Of a stretch of DNA of 64,000 nt, positions 6,435-36,691 are shown piece by piece. The stretch lies in assembly GCF_044372965.1 (NCBI RefSeq), contig NZ_JBILQX010000001.1, positions 40,806-104,805 on the forward strand. The letters are read 5' to 3'. This DNA is from Elstera sp. GTDB lineage: Bacteria; Pseudomonadota; Alphaproteobacteria; Elsterales; Elsteraceae. Every line of letters starts with the position of its first letter. Within the stretch, counting starts at the first letter, position 1. A program made the position numbers and the translations under genes. A model generated the notes under the pieces. That model did no database searches. It was given only the letters and a program-made list of their open reading frames with translations, and was not told the origin of the DNA.

Positions 6435-8516
6435 TTAAGCCGCGCGGATATTCCCCAGGAACTCGGTGATTTCCGTACGCAGCGTGTTGCCCGCAAGTGT
6501 AAGCCGATCGGCGGCTTCCAGCACCACATCGGCGGCCTTTTTAGTCTCGCCAGCCCCTAAGGTGACATGGGCGATATTCTCGGTGACATGCTGGGTGCCA
6601 TTGGCCGCCTGTTGTACGTTGCGGGTAATTTCCTGGGTTGCCGTCCCTTGCTCTTCCACCGCCGCCGCAACCGCCGAGGTGATTTCGTTCATCCGGTCGA
6701 TGGTTTTGCCGATGGTTTCGATGGAGCCAACGACGGCACTGGTTTCGGTCTGAACGCCGGTGACTTGCGCTGCAATTTCCTCGGTGGCTTTCGCCGTTTG
6801 CTGCGCAAGGCTTTTGACTTCGGCGGCGACCACGGCAAAGCCCTTGCCCGCTTCCCCGGCGCGCGCCGCTTCGATGGTGGCGTTCAAGGCCAGAAGATTG
6901 GTTTGCGCGGCGATCCCGTTGATCATCGTCACCACCTCGCCGATGCGCTGGGCCGCGTCGCTAAGCTGGCGAACTTGGGAGACGGTACGCTCGGCCTCAT
7001 CGGTCGCCCGCAAGGCAATCGAGGCGCTTTCCTGAACCTGTCGGCCGATTTCGCGTATTGAACTGCTGAGTTCTTCCGAAGCCGCCGCTACCGTCTGCAC
7101 ATTCGCCGACGCTTGCTCGGAGGCAGCCGCTACTGCCGCCGCTTGATCGTCGGTGCGCGCAGCATTGGTGCTCATCACATTGGCGGTGCCCTGCATTTGA
7201 TCGGCCGCCGCGCCCATGGCCGTTAGAATTTCTGCCGTGCCCGAGCCGAAGGTCGCGATGAAGCTCTCAACTTTTTGCTGACGCTCCAGCTTGCGCGCCT
7301 GCTCTTGCGCTTGTTCGGCGTGCAACTGGTCGGCTTCGATGGCCTTGAGGCGCAGGTTTTCAATTGCACCCGCCATTTGACCGATTTCATTCTTGCGGTC
7401 GAGAAACGGCACCACCTGGTCGCGCTGGCCATTGGCGAGGACCGTCACGGTCTCGGTTAGTTTGAACAGCGGCGCCAAAACCTGACGCTGCATCAGAATA
7501 ATCAGGCGCACGAGCGCAAACCCGGTGACGAGAACCAGAAAGCCGCCGAAAGCAAGGCGCCGATAAGCGTTGGAAACTTCTGCCTCAGCCCGACTCTGGC
7601 TTTCCAGAAGCGCGGCATTGCGCAGGCCCATAATGCTTTGCAACTGCGGGACGATCTCCGTCACCATCTCGGTCACACTCTTGCTATAGGGGGCCTGCTG
7701 GCGCGATTCGGCCAGGTGCGTGCCGACGATCTCGCGCCCGCGCGTCATATAGCCTTGCTCCATCGCCCGTTGCGCGGCCAGAAGCTCCGGCGTGGCCCCC
7801 ACTTGCGCGATACCATTGCGCAACCGCTCCGACAGGGTCTCGACCCGCCCGCGCAACTGTTCGACGCGATCTGCTTCCACCTGTGTGAGCGGACGATTGG
7901 CGGTCATGCCCGTGCCCAAAGTCGCGGCCTGCTGGCCCGCGCTTTCACGCATATCGGCGGCAAGGCGCGCCAGCATATTCAAGGCCGCAACCGAAGGATC
8001 GGCAATCGTGGTTTCGGCTTCGAGCTTATTCAAGATGCCATCGGCCTGGGCGCTAATGGCGAACATGCGTTGGAAGTAACCCAGCACAATCTCGCCGCGC
8101 GCGCTGCGCGGTTTGGCAATATCGGTATCGACCGCCGCACGAACGCTGCTGAGCCCTTTGGTTAGGGTTGCCAGCGTCTCCTTCATCGCCGGCTCGCCGC
8201 CGAGGCTCGTAAGCCCAATCGAGACCTTCTGGATAAGATCGTCGGTGGCTTTGCGGGCCTGCTGAAGTTTGGCGAGCGCCGAGGCATCCGCCGCCGCTTC
8301 CGCTGCCAACAGATTATTCGACGGGCTGCGCTCCAGAGCTAAAAATTCGACCATGCGGAGTGTATCGGCAAAAACCGCCGCCGTGACCGATGCCCGATTC
8401 TTGGAAGACATGATGGAAACTTGTGTCGATAATATCTGAATCGCTAAAGCAAAAACGCAAACGCAAATAATGGCCAAGCCAAATTTTACGCGCGCACCGA
8501 TACTGATTTTCGACAC
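6435..8516 (-). CDS. Methyl-accepting chemotaxis protein
   Basis: N-terminal TM helix, second TM plus HAMP region, and the highly conserved signalling hairpin [37 protein letters not shown] at 8516 has a GAGGGG SD 6 nt upstream; the ORF-track TTG at 8549 is the alternative. Confidence 0.9.
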
Positions 8517-28748: not shown

Positions 28749-28794
28749 GTTGCCCCCGCCCCCGGCAAATTTCGGGGGAGCGGTTATCGCAGGC

Positions 28795-29085
28795 TTACGA
28801 GTTACTGTTTGCGACTTTGGCCGCTATCCGGTCGGTTGAGAGAGCCCGTAGTTCACGCTGCAAGTTATGAATCTTGCAGCTTATATCGCTTTGCGTGTTT
28901 AGAAGGGATTGATACGCTTCGAAGAAAACATGCTTATCACTATCGAGCAATCTCATCTGATAATTTGTGTGAATATCGCTTTCCACGAGTGATCTGCTAA
29001 TCTTTATAAAACGATCCATTTCGCTTGATAGCAAAACTAAACAAGCAAGATTATATGATAAAATGTTTTCGGCTCTTTGAGTCAT
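28795..29085 (-). CDS. Small alpha-helical hypothetical protein (H1), paralogue of 31576..31950
   Basis: AT-rich ORF. RAENILSYNLACLVLLSSEMDRFIKISRSL aligns with RARY-LAANLSCLNLMVIELEKLIQLGTEL of H2 (11/30 identical by hand). ATG at 29085 has an AGGGTG SD; GTG at 29094 is the alternative. Confidence 0.5.
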   Translation of the reverse strand: MTQRAENILSYNLACLVLLSSEMDRFIKISRSLVESDIHTNYQMRLLDSDKHVFFEAYQSLLNTQSDISCKIHNLQRELRALSTDRIAAKVANSNS

Positions 29086-29178
29086 TTTTAGCACCCTGGC
29101 ACGATCTATATTTAGATTAATTTTCCGATATTATTTTAATTTTCGCATTTCTTATCCTCATTTTTGCGAGAAGATAGT

Positions 29179-29239
29179 GTTTGCGGCCTCACCGTGGCGA
29201 GATGGGCATGGGTGCCAGGGAATCGGTGAGGCCGCAAAC
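29179..29239. repeat. Perfect 16-bp inverted repeat with 29-nt loop
   Basis: GTTTGCGGCCTCACCG (29179-29194) and CGGTGAGGCCGCAAAC (29224-29239). G+C-rich, set in an AT-rich intergenic region, with no flanking T/A run. Confidence 0.6.
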
Positions 29240-29295
29240 AACGCACCGCCGAGCGTGGCGTTACGCAGCTCTACTCAAAGCGTTTTTGGCTCAAA

Positions 29296-29324
29296 CTGGC
29301 GTCCACGCCCACAGGGCAGGACGC
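29296..29324 (+). repeat. Copy 1 of a 29-nt hairpin-containing motif
   Basis: CTGGCGTCCACGCCCACAGGGCAGGACGC. Matches 32093-32121 at 27/29 positions. Internal stem GCGTCC/GGACGC, followed by a T-rich tail (AAAATTCACTTATTTTT). Confidence 0.6.
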
Positions 29325-29359
29325 AAAATTCACTTATTTTTAGCGCGATACATACGATG

Positions 29360-30529
29360 TTATTCAAAAGCATGCGTCTCATGAACCCGATGCGCTTGCA
29401 GCCATTGGGTCGGGGCGCACCCTGTCAAGCGTTTGAAGGCAGCATTAAAAGCGGATTTCGAATTGTACCCCACCAACAAGGCGACCTCTAAAATCGTCTT
29501 CTCGGTCCCCGCCGACGATAGCAGGATAGACTGCGCATCTTGTATTCGGAGCGCGTTGAGATATTCCGAAAAACTCTGCCCTAAACCATCGTTCAAGGCT
29601 TGGGAGATATATTCTCGGCGAATCGAAAGATGATCGGCTAAGGATTGCACCGTAAGGTTCGAATCGCGCCAGAGCTTACCTACCCGAAATTCAGTCTCAA
29701 TCCGGCCAACGATCCTTTGAATATCGGCATCGTCCAAACCCGATTTCTGATAGCGCACGGTTGGCGCGCTGGGCGGGCTCACTTGAAAGATAACAGGCCG
29801 TGCCTTCAGGGGTTTCCGCGCCCAAAACGCATAAGGTTGCGTGATTGCCTGAAATGTCATGAAATATACGACAATTGAAAATATCAAAATATCGATATCC
29901 ATTAATAGCATCCAGTCAAAATAATGATTTAAAACAACATTCGACATAAAAAATGCTGCCCAGCAGGTAAGAAGCGACCGGAAAAAGGCACAAATCCATC
30001 GTTTAGAATAATTATTCTTGAAGTGAGTCGCGGAGATTAATTTCCAAATGAATATAATCCCCCCACCCTGATGCAGGGTGACAAGCGCAACGCAAAATTT
30101 TATTGCGCCCTCAAAATCTTGATAGGCAGAAGCAATATCATCTGTATTACCGATAATAGCGCTGCGATAGAAACAAAAATAAAAGACAGGGAGGGACGTT
30201 ATAAAAATAAAAATTGATATAATTGAGTTTACTGTGAAAAATTTCTTAACACCCATATCTGGGTGAATAGATATTTTGAAATATGACAGCCCGAAAGGAG
30301 AGATTAACGTCATGAAAAAAAGATTTACAATATATCCATACGGACGCAATTCGAGCGCGATTAAACGCAAACTCACACCTGTAAAAATAGAAATTATATA
30401 AAAAACCAAAAATGCAACAAAAAAATAATTAGCCTTTGTCCGACGCGCTTTCCTAAGAAGCAACAATATAATAAAAAATGCTAGATTTACTGCCGTAAGT
30501 AATACCAAGAACTGTGAAACAATCTGCAT
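29360..30529 (-). CDS. Membrane-anchored AraC-family transcriptional regulator (multi-TM N-terminus + C-terminal HTH)
   Basis: The C-terminal 100 aa (LTVQSLADHLSIRREYISQALNDGLGQSFSEYLNALRIQDAQSILL...ILEVALLVGYNSKSAFNAAFKRLTGCAPTQW) form an AraC double HTH. The N-terminal ~250 aa contain about 7 hydrophobic helices. A spot count on a coding line gives ~37% G+C. ATG at 30529 has an AGGTG SD; the ORF opens at TTG 30616. Confidence 0.8.
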   Translation of the reverse strand: MQIVSQFLVLLTAVNLAFFIILLLLRKARRTKANYFFVAFLVFYIISIFTGVSLRLIALELRPYGYIVNLFFMTLISPFGLSYFKISIHPDMGVKKFFTVNSIISIFIFITSLPVFYFCFYRSAIIGNTDDIASAYQDFEGAIKFCVALVTLHQGGGIIFIWKLISATHFKNNYSKRWICAFFRSLLTCWAAFFMSNVVLNHYFDWMLLMDIDILIFSIVVYFMTFQAITQPYAFWARKPLKARPVIFQVSPPSAPTVRYQKSGLDDADIQRIVGRIETEFRVGKLWRDSNLTVQSLADHLSIRREYISQALNDGLGQSFSEYLNALRIQDAQSILLSSAGTEKTILEVALLVGYNSKSAFNAAFKRLTGCAPTQWLQAHRVHETHAFE

Positions 30530-30835
30530 AACCACACCTGGGACACTAATTTTGGGAGCACACTCTCTAACTCGCGAGTCGCTCAATCCCATACCAGGTC
30601 TTTTGTGGACAGACAATATACAATTAGAAAAAAATTGATGGAGACATCCAAAGAGCGCGTCATCAAAAATATTAACAAAACACTAACGCAATATAAAATA
30701 AGAAATTCTATAAATATTAATATTTTTTATATGAATTCTAAACGTAGAATACAAAAATAATAAAATAAATACACAAGCCAATAGGGGCGATATATAAGCT
30801 ATACGCTATACATTGCCCCCAGTAAAAAGCACATC

Positions 30836-31579
30836 TTACTTCCAGTCATTAACACCGTAGCGCATGAGAATCGCATTCAACTCGCCGGATGCCCGGAGCG
30901 CGCGGATTCCTGCATCGAATGTTGCCGCCAAATCCCGACTTCTAGCGGGCGATGCTGGAGATAATCCGAAATAGATCGCTTCCCCAGCCAAACACCCCGC
31001 CTTGGCGAGCTTGAGATTATTGGCCTTGATATAGTAGGAGCCAACGCCATCATCTTCCAATAGAATGGTCAACCGACCAGCGGCCAGTTTTCTAAAATTT
31101 TGATCGGTCCCACTGGTTGCCGTTAGGAAATCGACCGAAGCGGCATTAGCACGGTCCTCCAGCCAATCGGTTATTTCGGCATAAGAGACATCGCGCAAAG
31201 CGCCAATCTTCTGCCCTTTCAGACTTGCCGTGCCCTTGTACTGCCAGTCCGAATCCTCCCGGCGGAAAAAGCAATACCGTTGTACCCCGATTGGCTCCTC
31301 GGGAAAAATAAAGTCCGGCGCTTCAGTCTTGGCGGGGGACAGCGCCGCCGCAAAATCTCCTTGCCGTGTGCTTTCGAGAGCGCGCGCCCAAGAGGCGAAC
31401 GTCACAGAAACATTGTGTCCGCTGCGCTCTAAAACCCGTTTCGTAATATCGACAGCGTACCCCAAATCAGACGAATTCTCGCAAACAAAAGGGCAAAAAT
31501 CGGTCGTTATGATCTTCACTTCCTGGGCCTGCGCGGAAAAAGTGAAAATCAACGCACACAAAACACCTAGTTTTTTCAT
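30836..31579 (-). CDS. Periplasmic solute-binding protein (family 3 / amino-acid-binding type), orphan
   Basis: Signal peptide MKKLGVLCALIFTFSAQA and the two-lobe SBP pattern (YAVDITKRVLERSGHNV...FASWARAL...GDFAAAL...IGALRDVSY). Strong GGAGG SD. No permease or ATPase gene adjacent. Confidence 0.8.
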   Translation of the reverse strand: MKKLGVLCALIFTFSAQAQEVKIITTDFCPFVCENSSDLGYAVDITKRVLERSGHNVSVTFASWARALESTRQGDFAAALSPAKTEAPDFIFPEEPIGVQRYCFFRREDSDWQYKGTASLKGQKIGALRDVSYAEITDWLEDRANAASVDFLTATSGTDQNFRKLAAGRLTILLEDDGVGSYYIKANNLKLAKAGCLAGEAIYFGLSPASPARSRDLAATFDAGIRALRASGELNAILMRYGVNDWK

Positions 31580-31950
31580 GTTTTTCCTCCAGATAAGATT
31601 GACTTAACGCTATCCGATAACAGAATTATGTTTCTTTTAATTTCGGAGTTCATTGAATTGAGTCCATTATTATAGCGATATATAGTGTTAATAACATTTT
31701 GATCATTGGGATCGTCACCGAGCATATTCCGCATGCACTGTTCCAACTCCGTACCAAGTTGGATGAGTTTTTCGAGTTCGATGACCATCAAGTTCAAACA
31801 GGAAAGATTCGCGGCCAAGTATCTCGCGCGAAAATCCTCACGATCATCCATCAATGTCAGTTGAAGCTGAGCAATCGCGTCAAACGGCTTCAACTCAGTT
31901 CCGCCTGAACAGAGGCGCGTTATGGCAGAGGGCGGGTGTTGTGCGGACAT
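31576..31950 (-). CDS. Small alpha-helical hypothetical protein (H2), paralogue of H1, translationally coupled to the SBP gene
   Basis: The stop TGA overlaps the SBP ATG (ATGA at 31576-31579). Similarity to H1 begins at internal Met34 (alternative start 31851). Confidence 0.5.
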   Translation of the reverse strand: MSAQHPPSAITRLCSGGTELKPFDAIAQLQLTLMDDREDFRARYLAANLSCLNLMVIELEKLIQLGTELEQCMRNMLGDDPNDQNVINTIYRYNNGLNSMNSEIKRNIILLSDSVKSILSGGKT

Positions 31951-32092
31951 CGCGTCATCATCCCCTAGATGGGATCGTGTTGCTGAGGCGTCGACGGCGC
32001 GAACTTGGGATATGACAGGGGTGCCCGCGCCGCCAACGATCAGGGGATAACGGCCCGCCTGACTGGCGCAAATTGCGGGAAAATGGGCGGTT

Positions 32093-32121
32093 CTGGCGTC
32101 CTCGCCGACAGGGCAGGACGC
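32093..32121 (+). repeat. Copy 2 of the 29-nt hairpin-containing motif
   Basis: CTGGCGTCCTCGCCGACAGGGCAGGACGC followed by GACTTATTTAAAAATT. Same orientation as copy 1. Confidence 0.6.
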
Positions 32122-32261
32122 GACTTATTTAAAAATTATCTGGAATTCTGTATTTAGTTATGATCGACGATTGAGACCGTGCGCCAATATACGCGCACCA
32201 TACCCTAATCTCCCAAAGGCTTGGCAAGGAGCAACAGCGCAGAGAACTGCCGCCCGCTACA

Positions 32262-32285
32262 CCCCCCCCCCCCCCCCCCCCCCCC
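32262..32285. repeat. Homopolymeric C24 (G24 on the gltX-sense strand) tract
   Basis: 24 consecutive C. The count was cross-checked against the translation of ORF 32221..32409 (H then P x8). It lies 29 nt beyond the gltX stop codon. Confidence 0.95.
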
Positions 32286-32314
32286 GGGCCGACGGCATTC
32301 CCTCCATCCCTTAA

Positions 32315-33700
32315 TTAGGCGAGCGCGTCGGCGAGTCGCCCGAGGCTTTCTTCGCGCCCGAGCAGCGCCATCACCTCGGCAACGCCAGGGGAATTGGTTC
32401 GCCCGGTGAGCGCCGCCCGCAGGGGTTGGCCGAGTTTGACGAAGGGCACGTCCAGCGCTTTGGCCTGGGCTTTCACCAGCGCGGCCAACGCATCGTGCGA
32501 CCAATCATCAACGCCCTGCAACGCCTCATACACGGCGCGAACGCGGGCGAGCGCCTCCTCGGTCAGAACCGCGTGCGCCGCCTCTTCCACCGGAATCGGG
32601 CGCGGGGCGAGGTAGAAAGCCGCCGTTTCGGCTAAGTGAGGGACGGTTTTCGCCCGCTCCTTCAGCCCCGGCATCGCCGCCGTCAGCAGGGCTTTCGCCG
32701 GATCGTCGGGCGCGCGGCCCAGGTGCGGCAGAATGAGTTCCGCAAGGCGCGCATCATCGGCGTGTTTCATAAAGTGGAAATTGGCCGAAACCAGCGCGTC
32801 GGCATCGAGCCGCGCCGGGGATTTACCCAAATGCGACAGGTCGAACGCCGGAGCCGCGCTCTCCATCGTCGGATGCTCCAGCCCCGAGGCCCAGCCGAGC
32901 CCCATCAGGTAGGAGACCACCGCTTCCGGCAGGAAGCCTTGATCGCGATACTCGCCAATCCCGACCGCGCCGTGACGCTTGGAAAGCTTCTGCCCGTCCG
33001 GCCCGTGAATGAGCGGAATATGGGCATAAACCGGGCGCGCAACGCCCAAGGCGTCATAGATCTGCGCTTGGCGGGCGGCGTTGGTCATATGATCGTCGCC
33101 GCGAATAATATGGGTCACGCCCATATCGATATCGTCCACCACGGTCGAGAGCATATAGGTCGGCGAGCCGTCGCCGCGCAGCAGGATGAAATCATCGAGA
33201 TCGGAGTTGGCGAAGGTGATCGTGCTATGCACCCGGTCGGGGATGATCGTGCTGCCCGTGCGCGGGGTTTTCAGGCGAATGACGAAGGGCGCGCCCGCTG
33301 GGGCCTCGCTCGGGTCGCGGTCGCGCCAGCGGCCATCGTAGCGCGGCGGCAGCCCGCGCCGGGCGGCTGCCTTGCGCATCTCTTCCAGTTCTTCAGCAGT
33401 CGCGTAGCAGCGATAGGCTTTTCCCGCCGCCAGCAATTGTTCCGCGACTTCCACGTGCCGGGTGAGGCGCTGGTGCTGAAACACCGGCTCGCCGTCGAAT
33501 TTCAGGCCGAGCCAGTCCAGCCCCTCGAAAATCGCCTGAACCGCCGCGTCGGTCGAACGCTCGCGGTCGGTATCATCGATCCGCAGCAGCGCTTTGCCGC
33601 CCGTGTGGCGGGCGTACAGAAGGGTAAACAGGGCGGTGCGCGCCCCGCCGATATGCAGCATCCCCGTCGGCGACGGGGCGAAACGTGTGATGGTGCTCAT
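32315..33700 (-). CDS. gltX: Glutamate--tRNA ligase
   Basis: MSTITRFAPSPTGMLHIGGARTALF (HIGH motif) and KLSKRHG (KMSKS motif). Confidence 0.95.
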   Translation of the reverse strand: MSTITRFAPSPTGMLHIGGARTALFTLLYARHTGGKALLRIDDTDRERSTDAAVQAIFEGLDWLGLKFDGEPVFQHQRLTRHVEVAEQLLAAGKAYRCYATAEELEEMRKAAARRGLPPRYDGRWRDRDPSEAPAGAPFVIRLKTPRTGSTIIPDRVHSTITFANSDLDDFILLRGDGSPTYMLSTVVDDIDMGVTHIIRGDDHMTNAARQAQIYDALGVARPVYAHIPLIHGPDGQKLSKRHGAVGIGEYRDQGFLPEAVVSYLMGLGWASGLEHPTMESAAPAFDLSHLGKSPARLDADALVSANFHFMKHADDARLAELILPHLGRAPDDPAKALLTAAMPGLKERAKTVPHLAETAAFYLAPRPIPVEEAAHAVLTEEALARVRAVYEALQGVDDWSHDALAALVKAQAKALDVPFVKLGQPLRAALTGRTNSPGVAEVMALLGREESLGRLADALA

Positions 33701-33812
33701 GCCGGGCTTTGTAGCAGCGGGCGACGGTTTGGGCTAGGGTGGAGGCTCTCTGATGTTCGGGTCAACCCGCTTTCGCATTGGCTAACATGTATAAAGTAAT
33801 TTTTGAGTTAAC

Positions 33813-34298
33813 ATGAACCCAAACTCCCATCACTTCCTACGCTTAACCGTATACGCAGGATGCGAGATTCTTATTTATAGCCTTATACCCATGATAATAA
33901 TTTTATTCCTCCAATGGTTATTTTTTGCTTTGGCGGCATTTATATTTTTTCCAATACTCATTTTTGGTGGCGCAGGCTGGTGGGGCTTTATTAAAACAGC
34001 CTCTCGAACACTCAAAGGTGAGTCGAGCTTTAGGATGTTCGATACCGTTATGATATTCTTTGGAATGGTTATCTATGCGCCATATCTAATATGGGCCGGT
34101 GACAGTTTTTTTATGACGAAAACCTCAGGTGCTGGGACTGTAATTGCCTATTTGATTAATCTGTCACCGATTTTAATGGGAGTAACCTTGCTCGTTCGGC
34201 GCTTTCTTCTGACGCTCAAGCGCCCCGTCGCCGTCGATCCCACGCAAACAGTAGTGGCGCTAGAACCCGATCATAGAGCGCCACCGCCAGCGGTTTGA
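33813..34298 (+). CDS. AT-rich small membrane protein, four predicted TM helices (cassette B1)
   Basis: ATG start. Hydrophobic blocks at about aa 10-33, 35-58, 75-95 and 105-128. The last ~26 codons are read antisense through the DCC-derived repeat. A spot count gives ~30% G+C. Confidence 0.5.
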   Translation: MNPNSHHFLRLTVYAGCEILIYSLIPMIIILFLQWLFFALAAFIFFPILIFGGAGWWGFIKTASRTLKGESSFRMFDTVMIFFGMVIYAPYLIWAGDSFFMTKTSGAGTVIAYLINLSPILMGVTLLVRRFLLTLKRPVAVDPTQTVVALEPDHRAPPPAV

Positions 34299-34428
34299 TC
34301 CCCCGCGCGCCGACAATCCGCCCGAGCCAGCGGTAGCGCGGCAGGTGGGACCAGAGCAGCAGGAAGCCGTCCACGCCGATATGCAGCATCCCCGTCGGCA
34401 AAAGGGCGAAACGTGTGACGGTGCTCAT
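34216..34428 (-). pseudogene. Chimeric gltX'-'DCC ORF created by duplication junction
   Basis: MSTVTRFALLPTGMLHIG (GltX codons 1-18) is fused in frame to VDGFLLLWSHLPRYRWLGRIVGARGIKPLAVALYDRVLAPLLFAWDRRR (C-terminus of the DCC protein at 34959..35345). Confidence 0.65.
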
Positions 34429-34476
34429 GCTGGGCTTTGTAGCAGCGGGCGGCGGTTTGCGTTAGGGTTGAGACTG
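34228..34476. repeat. Composite duplicated block: DCC 3' end joined to gltX 5' end/upstream
   Basis: 34231-34383 matches 34971-35123 (9 mismatches in 153 nt by hand). 34374-34476 matches 33646-33748 (10 mismatches in 103 nt). The two overlap at the shared CGCCGATATG. Confidence 0.85.
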
Positions 34477-34507
34477 GTGAGCAGGCACTAATCAAACGAG
34501 ATCAAAT

Positions 34508-35038
34508 TTGTTAAATTTTTTAAAGAGCCCAACCCTAAAAGAGCCCCTCACCCGCACCCAAACGATATACAATATTTTTTTAATCATAATACAAATCTCA
34601 TTATACACCGCATCTCTTTTTAGCAATATTATAATATTGATTATCCTAATTTTATCATCCATTGGAATATTGATTGCAATATTTATTGCATGTATTGTTT
34701 ATTTATTTTCAGATAAACTTTTTTCCGATATTAGAATAGATTATAAAAAGAAAGTTTTTGATGCCAAAACAATAATATTATGCATTGTGTATTTTTTTCT
34801 ATCTATTCCTGCGTTATTTATAATCATATTTATAGGTGGTTACGAAGATTGGCCGGAATATATTTACATGATTATATTGTTCATGCCCTTCAACCCCATA
34901 CTGACCCTTACAGCCCTATCAACCCGGCGGCACTTCTATCGCCGACTCGCAAACAGCATCACGATGCCCGCCGCCGATCCCACGCAAACAGCAGCGGCGC
35001 CAGAACCCGATCATAGAGCGCCACCGCCAGCGGCTTGA
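34508..35038 (+). CDS. Very AT-rich small membrane protein, four predicted TM helices (cassette B2)
   Basis: Only a TTG start is available. Hydrophobic blocks at about aa 20-40, 41-68, 88-112 and 118-140. The C-terminal tail DPTQTAAAPEPDHRAPPPAA is encoded antisense to the DCC 3' end. A spot count gives ~20% G+C. Confidence 0.4.
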   Translation: MLNFLKSPTLKEPLTRTQTIYNIFLIIIQISLYTASLFSNIIILIILILSSIGILIAIFIACIVYLFSDKLFSDIRIDYKKKVFDAKTIILCIVYFFLSIPALFIIIFIGGYEDWPEYIYMIILFMPFNPILTLTALSTRRHFYRRLANSITMPAADPTQTAAAPEPDHRAPPPAA

Positions 35039-35345
35039 TCTCCCGCGCGCCAACGATCCGCCCAAGCCAGCGGTAGCGCGGCAGGTGGGACCAGAGCAGC
35101 AGGAAGCCGTCCACGCCGATATGAACCGCGCCTTGGGCATCCAGCACATGCAGGCGCTTGCGCACGTCAATCGGATCGAAGCCGCGCGCCCGCGCCGCTT
35201 CGGGGTCGCGGCCAATGTCGATCCAGCCGAGGCCGAGGCCCGCGCGGGCGTCCTGGGCGCGGTAATGGTCGATTTCCGTCCGGCAGACCGGGCAAGAGCC
35301 ATTGTAGAGCGTTGTGCAGGCGGGGAGGTTCGGCGTGTCGGTCAT
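34959..35345 (-). CDS. Thiol-disulfide oxidoreductase DCC family protein (DUF393)
   Basis: N-terminal LYNGSCPVCRTEIDHYR (CxxC) and the C-terminal region typical of DCC proteins. Its start overlaps the upstream permease stop by 4 nt. Confidence 0.85.
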   Translation of the reverse strand: MTDTPNLPACTTLYNGSCPVCRTEIDHYRAQDARAGLGLGWIDIGRDPEAARARGFDPIDVRKRLHVLDAQGAVHIGVDGFLLLWSHLPRYRWLGRIVGAREIKPLAVALYDRVLAPLLFAWDRRRAS

Positions 35346-36691
35346 GAACTCGTCTCGTTGCGCGTGCCGAACAATCCCGTCGGGCGGAGGATCAACACGC
35401 CGACCAGCAGCACGAACACGGCTAAATCGCGCATCTCATTGGAGATAAAGGCGGCGAAGAGGATTTCAACCAGCCCGACCAGCATTGCGCCTGCCATCGC
35501 TCCCGTCAGCGTGCCGATCCCGCCGAGAATCGCCCCCGTGAGCGCTTTGAAACCAAGGGCGAGGCCGATGCTATGGTCGGTCTGGCCGTAATAGACCACC
35601 GACACCAACCCGCCGACGCCCGCAAGCGCCGTTGAAAGCGCAAAAGCCCGCGCGATGACGCCATTCACCGGCACCCCCAGCAGCCCCGCCATCGTCGGAT
35701 CAGCGGCGCAGGCGCGCAAATCCCGCCCGAAGCGCGTGCGTTACACGGTAGTGTGCAACAGGAGGCCGATGATCGCCGTCAGCAGAATAATGGCAAGCTG
35801 GCTAAAGCTGAAATGCACGGTCGAGTCGCCCATGTGCAGCGTCCAGCCGCCTTGAATCAGGGGGGGAAGGATTTTACCGCGCGCGCCTTGGGCGAGCAGT
35901 ACCGAGTTTTGCACCACCAGCGACAGGCCAATCGCCGCCACCAGGGGCGAGAGCCGATTGCCGCGCCCGATCGGCCGGTAAACGGTGCGGTCAATCACCG
36001 CCCCCAGCACGCCACCATAGGCCAGAACGGCGATTAGGGCGGCAGGCAGCAGAATCCAGGCACTCTCCACCCCCGCCATACCGAGACCGAGAATAACGAT
36101 CACCGCCAGGATCGAGCCGACCATCGCCAGTTCACCAAAGGCGAAATTCACGATTTCCAGCAGGCTAAAAATCAACGCGTAGCCAACCGCGATGAGCGCA
36201 TAGAGGCTGCCGACGGTGAGCGCGTTCAGAAGCTGCTGAAGCCCATAGGCCGAGCCCGCCAGGGCGGATTTCTGCACCGGCTGCGCGGCGTCGAAGCGCT
36301 TCGGCCCCTCGCTTGCCATCCGCCCCCAAACCTCCAGCACGGTTACTTCGCGGTCCGACAGCGGGCCGCCGCGCAGGGTTTCGACGGCGCGCAAGGGCGG
36401 GGTTTCCAAGGCTTGCGCCCGACCAGCGAAATGGCAGATCAAGCCATCCTTCTGCCCATCCCCCCAGCGCCAAGCGATTTGGACCGAGAGCGGGCCGATC
36501 ACGTCGGGCGGCGCGCGAACGATGGTTTCTCCCGCCGGCTCGAAGGCCCCCGTGAGGGCGGCGCAGGCGCGAAACAAATCATCGGGCTTGCGCTCGCAGG
36601 CACCGAGCAACAACCCGGCGAGCAGCAGCAGGCCGAAGCGAGGGCGAGCGTGCCGGAGCCAACGCCTTAGGAAAGCCATAATCAGCGCCAA
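35342..36691 (-). pseudogene. LivH-type branched-chain amino acid ABC permease interrupted by an in-frame TAA, with lipoprotein-like N-terminal extension
   Basis: ORFs 35741..36691 and 35342..35719 are in the same frame, separated by a TAA (35741-35743) plus 7 sense codons (RTRFGRD). The joined sequence reads ...LLLHTTV*RTRFGRDLRACAADPTMAGLLGV..., the conserved LivH loop. The N-terminal 130 aa carry a lipobox-like LLLGAC. Confidence 0.7.

Follow-up and report, generated by a model that had tools for sequence, protein, structure and literature searches.

Arrays of orphan immunity genes are known from the cdiA-CT/cdiI orphan modules, from the Rhs and type VI secretion system immunity islands and from acquired interbacterial defence clusters, and the immunity proteins of the colicin A/B type are proteins of about 175 residues with four transmembrane segments. 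Experiments have demonstrated homology-facilitated illegitimate recombination (HFIR) in Acinetobacter, Streptococcus and Pseudomonas, but not, as far as is known, in Elstera. It reportedly takes place during the uptake of foreign DNA, in work attributed to de Vries & Wackernagel (2002) and Prudhomme et al. (2002), and microhomology-mediated, RecA-independent tandem duplication is said to be among the duplication mechanisms treated by Reams & Roth (2015). Rodriguez-Valera, Lopez-Perez and colleagues are said to have described replacement-type flexible genomic islands, which are hypervariable slots between core genes. Here we describe a locus of Elstera sp. that can be set beside each of these, the interval between gltX, which encodes glutamyl-tRNA synthetase, and the gene of a DCC1-like thiol-disulfide oxidoreductase (DCC). 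It lies in a stretch of 64,000 nucleotides (nt) of contig NZ_JBILQX010000001.1 (assembly GCF_044372965.1, positions 40,806 to 104,805), which we call the window and whose numbering is used below. From its sequence, the interval is a two-unit version of an Elstera array in which each unit carries an AT-rich gene for a small, predicted polytopic inner-membrane protein, and this strain-variable tandem array was probably built by stacking cassettes that had already diverged.

The two anchors of the array are genes on the minus strand, gltX on the left (32315..33700, 461 amino acids; Pfam tRNA-synt_1c, 276 bits, and Anticodon_2, 116 bits) and DCC on the right (34959..35345, 128 amino acids; PF04134, 64.9 bits). 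Part of each is repeated between them. The D repeat (155 nt, 94% identical, 9 mismatches in the repeat search; family D1) consists of the true DCC 3' end at 34969..35123 and of a pseudogene fragment of the same end, covering codons ~77-128, at 34229..34383. The G repeat (105 nt, 90% identical, 11 mismatches; family D2) consists of the true gltX codons 1-19 with 47 nt upstream at 33643..33747 and of a pseudogene fragment, the gltX 5' end with its 47 nt upstream, at 34371..34475. The copies start 740 nt apart for D and 728 nt apart for G, and repeats of such length and identity cannot be due to chance. The DCC fragment is fused to the gltX fragment at the 10-nt sequence CGCCGATATG (34374..34383). 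Each true gene has a single copy of this sequence, DCC at 35114-35123 and gltX at 33646-33655, and so does the join. The left D copy starts right where DCC natively ends, and the limits of the repeats in the window are exactly this end and the native leader of gltX, which are contiguous in a relative with an empty slot. We call the fused element, of about 250 nt, the scar J; it joins the last ~52 codons of DCC, at CGCCGATATG, to the first 18 codons of gltX and 47 nt upstream. Written as gltX-B1-DCC'/gltX'-B2-DCC, the interval repeats one unit head to tail, with a microhomology of 10 nt at the join.

An initial annotation, made from the letters alone, had recognized this layout as the one left by microhomology-mediated tandem duplication, and the overlap of the two repeats at a shared 10-nt microhomology, and both observations stand. 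Its mismatch count for the D repeat agrees with ours and its count of 10 for the G repeat is one too low, the repeats being 2-3 nt longer than it had given. The AT-rich inserts that it described are present, although its spot counts of 30% and 20% G+C are lower than the values for whole islands, which are 42% for the first insert, the body of cassette B1 (33748..34228), and 35% for B2, with the lowest 200-nt windows at 37.5% and 22%; the flanking genes have 66-69% G+C and the entire window 60%. As it had also stated, B1 and B2 have no similarity in nucleotide sequence, and the inserts give no alignment between the repeats. The edges of the two units are 90-94% identical, while their interiors are unalignable as nucleotides and not significantly similar as proteins.

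We compared the window with nine related loci (Elstera, Alphaproteobacteria). The number of cassettes in the slot between gltX and DCC ranges from 0 to 3, and they belong to at least four types (Y, B1, B2 and B3). The slot behaves as a variable docking site, which supports the docking site with replaced cassettes that the initial annotation had considered. In the metagenome contig L010 the slot is empty: the B1 insert is missing, and DCC is followed on the same strand by gltX, with the DCC stop codon TAG inside the G sequence GGGCTAGG. A scan of metagenomes with the gltX-leader pattern returned one contig, which is this empty locus. A single B1-type cassette is found in the cultured isolate E. 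litoralis Dia-1 (L007), in L001/L005 and in L004, and L006 carries a 152-residue protein of type B3 together with ~210 nt resembling the truncated 3' end of a B1-like gene. The count is one cassette in E. litoralis and in three MAGs (metagenome-assembled genomes). The window has two cassettes (gltX-B1-J-B2-DCC), and L011, a 188-kb contig from another Joint Genome Institute (JGI) sample, has three units (gltX-Y-J1-B1-J2-B2-DCC). L009 reads Y-J-B2-DCC and L003 reads Y-J-B1, its contig breaking off as the DCC repeat begins. The join, CCGATATG followed by CAGC, is common to the window, L003, L009 and the intact J2 of L011, and the J1 of L011 has one substitution within the microhomology (CCGGTATG).

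The cassettes at this site are recognizable as orthologues type by type. B1 of the window is 98% identical to B1 of L011, ~91% to that of E. litoralis over its full length (96% in the core), 90% to that of L003, 69-72% to those of L001/L004 and 44% to that of the distant locus L013; B2 is 84% identical to its orthologue in L011 and 87% to that in L009. The flanking proteins are close to those of E. litoralis, with 96% identity for GltX and, for DCC, 97% by tblastn (residues 8-126) or 93% by codon alignment. The other tblastn matches of DCC are to Elstera or to alphaproteobacterial MAGs. The additional stretch of L006 (6385-6597, between the B3 stop codon and DCC) resembles the 3'-terminal part of the B1-like gene in L013 (..TTTTGATGA[AG]GC[GA]CTACCTATGCCGCCGCCGGTCCC..) and looks like a truncated second cassette.

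Both plus-strand open reading frames (ORFs) of the initial annotation were confirmed: B1 (33813..34298, 161 residues, ATG start; 135 residues from the ATG at 33891 in the JGI call) and B2 (34508..35038, 176 residues, TTG start), whose core has ~32% G+C with minima near 22%. To measure selection we used Nei-Gojobori estimates of the nonsynonymous to synonymous ratio (dN/dS) on the cassette cores, tails excluded. The values are 0.12-0.36 for B1 (Fisher p = 2e-6, window vs L001), 0.20-0.28 for Y (p = 3e-6, L011 vs L009) and, for B2, 0.24-0.27 against L009 (p = 6e-5, window vs L009) and 0.58 against L011 (p = 0.12, not significant); DCC gives 0.22-0.25 and gltX 0.05-0.08. Shuffled sequences kept the frame open in 0 of 20000 cases for the B2 core and in 11 of 20000 for B1. 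Judged by these codon comparisons, B1, B2 and Y are shown to be real genes, and the cassettes to be under purifying selection. The GC3 of the cassettes is 0.26-0.52, compared with 0.79-0.83 in the neighbours, and reaches 0.62 in the distant L013 copy.

Two suggestions of the initial annotation, that the cassette may be evolving very fast and that B2, which has only a TTG start, may be decaying, do not hold. Against L001/L004, B1 has a dS of 0.71-0.81, a dN of 0.17-0.20 and ~70% amino-acid identity, and at the same depth DCC has a dS of 0.63-0.68, a dN of ~0.15 and ~80% identity, and gltX a dS of 0.58-0.63. Since B1 is on a par with DCC and gltX, diverging in step with them, it has been inherited vertically at an ordinary rate. 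As to B2, the 176-codon frame and its TTG are kept in three genomes with dN/dS of 0.24-0.58, and its leader and start codon (34476..34510) are identical at 35 of 35 positions in the window, L011 and L009, whereas the adjoining scar differs by ~8-10% among the same genomes; B2 is not decaying. Between the window and L011, B2 (34508-34966 vs 7370-7828) has 84% protein identity with a dN of 0.08, and B1 98% identity with a dN of 0.008, so that the DCC-side copy, B2, has changed ~10 times faster, perhaps under relaxed or diversifying selection.

The age of the scar was examined by aligning, over both repeats, the window J, the window true copies, the L011 J2 and the L011 true copies. At 11 sites the J copies are alike and differ from the true copies (the orthologous pattern), and at none are the copies alike within a genome (the concerted pattern); private changes number 25 in the J copies and 6 in the true copies. 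J differs from its parent sequences by 6-10% and is fairly young, the right G copy has 8 derived sites in common with the L011 J2, and the left D copy decays faster than the true DCC copy. The orthologous pattern, together with the excess of private changes in J, indicates that J is essentially a neutral orthologous scar, and by these site patterns it predates the window/L011 split by a similar amount of time. The conversion that the initial annotation had invoked to keep only the flanks homogenized accordingly finds no support since that split. On the other side of the array, the DCC fragment next to Y (L011 6402-6517, L003 220-358, L009 440-578) has a common 21-nt in-frame deletion, with an additional 18-nt gap in L011, and is only 83-86% like the true DCC end; the scar beside Y is either older than the one between B1 and B2 or decaying faster.

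The fusion also creates an in-frame chimeric gltX'-'DCC ORF of 70 codons (34216..34428, minus strand), which reads MSTVTRFALLPTGMLHIG (GltX 1-18) and then VDGFLLLW...RRRRGA (the DCC tail). The initial annotation was right about its presence and composition, and the comparison shows that it is not conserved as a gene. It is intact in the window and in the L011 J2, reduced to 24 residues in L003 and to 41 in L009, and in the L011 J1 no ORF of at least 60 codons is left, so that only two of the five junction copies examined keep the chimera whole. Its score against the DCC1-like family is 20.1 bits, under the cut-off of 27.8. Between the window and L011 it has an apparent dN/dS of 0.22, from only 18 changes, in an ORF that overlaps the B1 tail and is built of sequence from selected genes. 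The chimera is dispensable, and we read it as a junction scar, a by-product and probably not a gene.

The contrast between scar and cassettes carries the argument about how the array arose. J is ~10% from its parents, and B1 and B2, which under purifying selection ought to have diverged less than J, are unalignable; B1 and B2 were therefore already very different when J formed, unless an earlier round of conversion has reset the clock of the scar. Cassettes diverged beforehand argue against duplication in situ followed by divergence, and we consider stacking of such cassettes the probable origin of the array. Two routes would lead to it. DNA from a related strain with another cassette in this slot may have been joined by one homologous crossover, in DCC or beyond, and one microhomology join, which is the process known from the literature as HFIR, or else the unit may have been duplicated, with allelic replacement by way of the homologous flanks later overwriting one copy. 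Units would since have been added, removed and reshuffled by homologous recombination, whether between J copies, inside B1 or inside gltX.

Several traces fit such exchange. In L009 the scar is J1-like at its left and J2-like beside B2, as expected if recombination between J1 and J2 had deleted B1. The last bases of the gltX fragment track the cassette downstream, with GGGTTGAGAC before B2 and GGGTGGAGGC before B1. In the window, 33743-33890 (the 5' part of B1) is 93-94% identical to E. litoralis and 74-76% to L011. Across the B1 core, B2 and DCC, in contrast, window and L011 agree at mostly 90-99%, falling to 82-84% in part of B2 and at the 5' end of DCC. The identity to L011 jumps from 74-76% to 98-99% near B1 codon 27, which marks a crossover, and the window thus resembles a recombinant between a single-cassette locus and an array.

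A number of observations weigh against stacking. It predicts donors with a single other cassette, and neither B2 nor Y was found as the sole cassette of a locus, nor has the donor allele required by HFIR been observed on its own; the sampling is tiny, with one to three protein clusters per type among 5.8 billion proteins. The dS of gltX places L010 among the cassette-bearing lineages, and its empty slot may be either ancestral or the result of deletion. B2 cannot be shown to be homologous to B1 or Y (hhalign of B1 vs B2 and of B2 vs Y gives P of 0.18, and pairwise Smith-Waterman scores between cassette types are not above those of shuffles), so that 'one family' is a grouping by position, size, topology and one short motif. 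The J1 and J2 of L011 share the variants CTTTC and GCGACC, which indicates some exchange between scar copies and leaves room for an earlier round of conversion. Finally, the distant locus L013 has a Y-like gene (46% identical to Y over 88 residues), an AT-rich spacer of ~107 nt with no recognizable J, the B1-like gene P0008 and then DCC. The tail of its Y-like gene contains a 27-nt relic of the DCC fragment (21/27 matches, z = 5.3, 0 of 300 shuffles). An array with a decayed spacer implies that such arrays arose earlier and that their scars decay, and the order of Y before B1 in L013 suggests that the arrays are very old, which is harder to reconcile with J scars that are young, unless the same microhomology has served for repeated joins or the scars have passed through a round of homogenization. 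In the DCC homologue of L013 (799-1296, minus strand) the CxxC region is replaced by an N-terminal stretch that is foreign and hydrophobic (MSGFGFLAGIAAARL...), so that either the contig is chimeric or DCC was rearranged in this lineage.

These points bear on an alternative that we regard as rather unlikely, in which one ancestral cassette was duplicated or triplicated in situ long ago, the paralogues diverged past recognition and gene conversion kept the scar fragments similar to their parents. Besides the old array implied by L013 and the few variants common to the L011 J1 and J2, it would account for the apparent distant homology of the B1 and Y profiles, which align end to end in hhalign (113 columns, P = 4e-4) and are probably those of old paralogues. 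The site patterns between the window and L011 speak against it, with concerted sites (aabb) at 0 and orthologous sites (abab) at 11, and J has accumulated about 4 times as many private changes as the true copies, as a scar without conversion would. The decay of the L013 spacer means, moreover, that conversion is at least not general.

A plain recent duplication through the 10-nt microhomology, followed by extremely rapid divergence of the cassette bodies under positive selection or AT-biased decay, would match the layout and the junction, and the tenfold faster change of B2 than of B1 between the window and L011 (dN/dS 0.58 for B2) points in the same direction. We nevertheless consider it improbable, as it is contradicted by the rates: each type is conserved across genomes, with dN/dS of 0.12-0.36 in most pairs, the divergence of B1 tracks that of gltX and DCC, and the neutral scar has changed by only ~10% while the selected cassettes have become unalignable.

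Still less probable is the repeated insertion of site-specific mobile cassettes, of an integron or another recombinase, at one site between DCC and gltX. Different cassettes do have identical boundaries in different genomes, an empty site exists, and a left-end GTGGAG after GGGCTAGG is common to the cassettes. The element between cassettes, however, is made of DCC 3' and gltX 5' sequence and has no attC-like palindrome, and 32-37 kb of the window contains no inverted repeat of at least 20 nt except three weak pairs set far apart. Among the called neighbours there is no integrase or transposase (the 64-kb window as a whole was not scanned for intI), and the cassettes have no relatives on plasmids, phages or viral contigs. 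An assembly artefact, collapsed or chimeric, or accidental ORFs in AT-rich junk are hardly credible, although the window comes from a metagenome assembly and the short contigs L003, L009, L012 and L013 end at or near the repeats, a sign that assemblers have difficulty here, because four independent assemblies, among them contigs of 107 kb and 188 kb, agree in the junction and in the order of the cassettes, the cultured isolate E. litoralis Dia-1 has B1 at the same site, and the frames are preserved with dN/dS below 1.

The cassette proteins themselves are very hydrophobic and predicted to be helical. Hydropathy gives 3-4 hydrophobic segments per protein, and AlphaFold2 models of low confidence, too poor for comparing folds, have 3-5 helices (B1, from a 3-sequence alignment, pLDDT 61.7 and pTM 0.33; B2, from 2 sequences, pLDDT 58.4 and pTM 0.32), so the four helices at the same spacing of the initial annotation hold only approximately. 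At the protein level, B1 and B2 match only in a short (S/N)PIL..RR motif, which in B2 lies in the last helix, and in a common tail, DPTQT..EPDHRAPPPA. The tail arises because both ORFs run antisense into the DCC-derived repeat, as already noticed, for ~23 codons and not ~26. We considered this C-terminal tail as a functional domain and rejected it; it is antisense to DCC, in another frame in P0008 of L013 and missing from B3, and is most likely incidental read-through. In L001 (5916-6001) a TGA closes the N-terminal extension of the B1-type gene, which is open in the closely related L004, and this bears on whether the first hydrophobic segment belongs to the B1-type protein. Apparently the protein can start at an internal ATG (132-135 residues), or the MAG of L001 has an indel error.

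Family searches placed the cassettes on their own. A collection of 5.8 billion proteins has three clusters for B1 (itself included), one for B2 and two for Y, and an exhaustive hidden Markov model search with the B1 profile among 1.84 billion representatives added one distant homologue, P0008, the other hits being repetitive false positives. The cassettes have no match above threshold in sequence searches of Pfam, NCBIfam, PADLOC, PHROGs and the PDB; in PADLOC, none of B1, B2, Y, B3 and P0008 has a match at E <= 1. Plasmids and phages (tblastn) and viral contigs (pattern scans) gave no cassette relatives. With Pfam PF03526 (colicin E1 immunity), B2 scores 15.7 bits (E = 0.013), under the 25-bit cut-off, and B1, Y and B3 have no match. 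No toxin gene or toxin fragment is present among the neighbours of the array, the ORF upstream of each cassette being only the gltX'-'DCC scar, and in the literature on Elstera and on HFIR we found nothing specific to this array. As far as these searches reach, the cassette proteins are genus-restricted orphans.

Most likely they are accessory inner-membrane factors whose benefit is additive across types. Protection against membrane-targeting toxins or phages is conjecture by analogy. The stacking of types, the strain-variable copy number and the faster change of the outer copies would fit protective membrane proteins, yet we hold a role in immunity or exclusion to be doubtful. It is likewise quite unlikely that the fused scar acts as a portable, recombinase-free cassette spacer with which strains stack and swap divergent membrane proteins that serve as additive immunity or exclusion factors.

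The cassette genes lie on the strand opposite to DCC and gltX, divergent from gltX and convergent into DCC, and 112 nt separate gltX from B1. In the cassette-free L010 (1490-1535) only 33 nt lie between the DCC TAG and the start of gltX, which runs in the same direction, and the two genes are probably co-transcribed; insertion of a cassette on the opposite strand would thus cut the essential gltX off from the DCC operon and give it a new upstream region. The promoter/terminator scan found no terminators, and promoter-like matches only as AT-rich DNA would give; an Rfam search of 28-38 kb had no match at E <= 1. A target-site duplication around the insert was considered and rejected, the likeness of GCTAGG to GCTCAAGCG being too short and degenerate.

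The neighbours of the array are gltX, DCC, a livH-like branched-chain amino-acid permease and an RND pump. The permease gene, beside DCC (35342-36691, minus strand), is split by an in-frame TAA at 35738-35740 into ORFs of 316 and 125 codons; its relatives have CAA (Gln) at that codon and a single ORF of 445-449 codons, and the window copy is either a pseudogene or a sequencing error. The far side of gltX is likewise variable. In the window it is a 3.5-kb low-GC island (~28750-32300) with genes for a membrane-anchored AraC-type regulator (29360-30616), an SBP_bac_3 protein (30836-31579) and a 124-residue orphan (31576-31950). Its place is taken in E. litoralis, L001 and L004 by the gene of a RES toxin and a presumed partner, and in L011 gltX directly adjoins a phosphoribosyltransferase gene.

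Set beside the described systems, the array shares with microhomology-mediated duplication and HFIR its head-to-tail units, a join at a short, GC-rich 10-nt identity that is present in both parent sites, and a chimeric ORF as by-product of the junction; good homology across from the join, in DCC and further out, would be available as an anchor. A simple duplication would be expected to give identical units, whereas here the bodies are unalignable and the scar is ~90% like its parents. As in replacement-type islands, every relative has the site flanked by one and the same pair of conserved core genes, different strains have different genes there that are of similar size and kind but barely or not alignable, and the mosaic identity of the flanks indicates homologous exchange. 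The Elstera units differ from such islands in having 0.5 kb and one gene each, in being stacked in tandem and not merely replaced, and in encoding small inner-membrane proteins instead of clusters of the surface-polysaccharide type.

The resemblance to orphan immunity arrays lies in tandem, strain-variable, small and fast-diverging genes, often AT-rich and often encoding membrane proteins, in repeats between units that promote recombination, and in the advantage that stacking of types would bring. In Elstera, however, the array has no toxin gene or fragment, the spacers derive from the flanking housekeeping genes and not from a toxin gene, and the cassettes match no defence or immunity family. 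Immunity proteins of pore-forming colicins are also small, polytopic inner-membrane proteins of similar length and typically AT-rich genes, but B2 is below the PF03526 cut-off and no colicin-like gene is nearby. From integron arrays the locus differs in its spacers, which are DCC and gltX fragments, in having no suitable inverted repeats and no integrase among its neighbours.

The locus, more elaborate than the initial annotation had described it, is a natural example of several divergent versions of one accessory gene side by side, for which a 10-nt microhomology and ordinary homologous recombination are the only tools needed. With 0-3 units and a datable neutral scar, it offers a well-bounded test case for two histories that are usually hard to separate, 'duplicate then diverge' and 'stack already-diverged alleles'. 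It also presents an orphan membrane family under selection with a member in the cultured E. litoralis Dia-1, which makes its function directly testable. If the proteins were indeed immunity or exclusion factors, this would be a new, recombinase-free type of defence-cassette array, a functional analogue of the orphan immunity arrays that works without a toxin gene, an integrase or an attC site. The mechanisms are of known kinds; what is unusual is that a spacer made by fusing the two flanking housekeeping genes, orphan cassettes of deep divergence and a copy number of 0-3 within one genus occur together.

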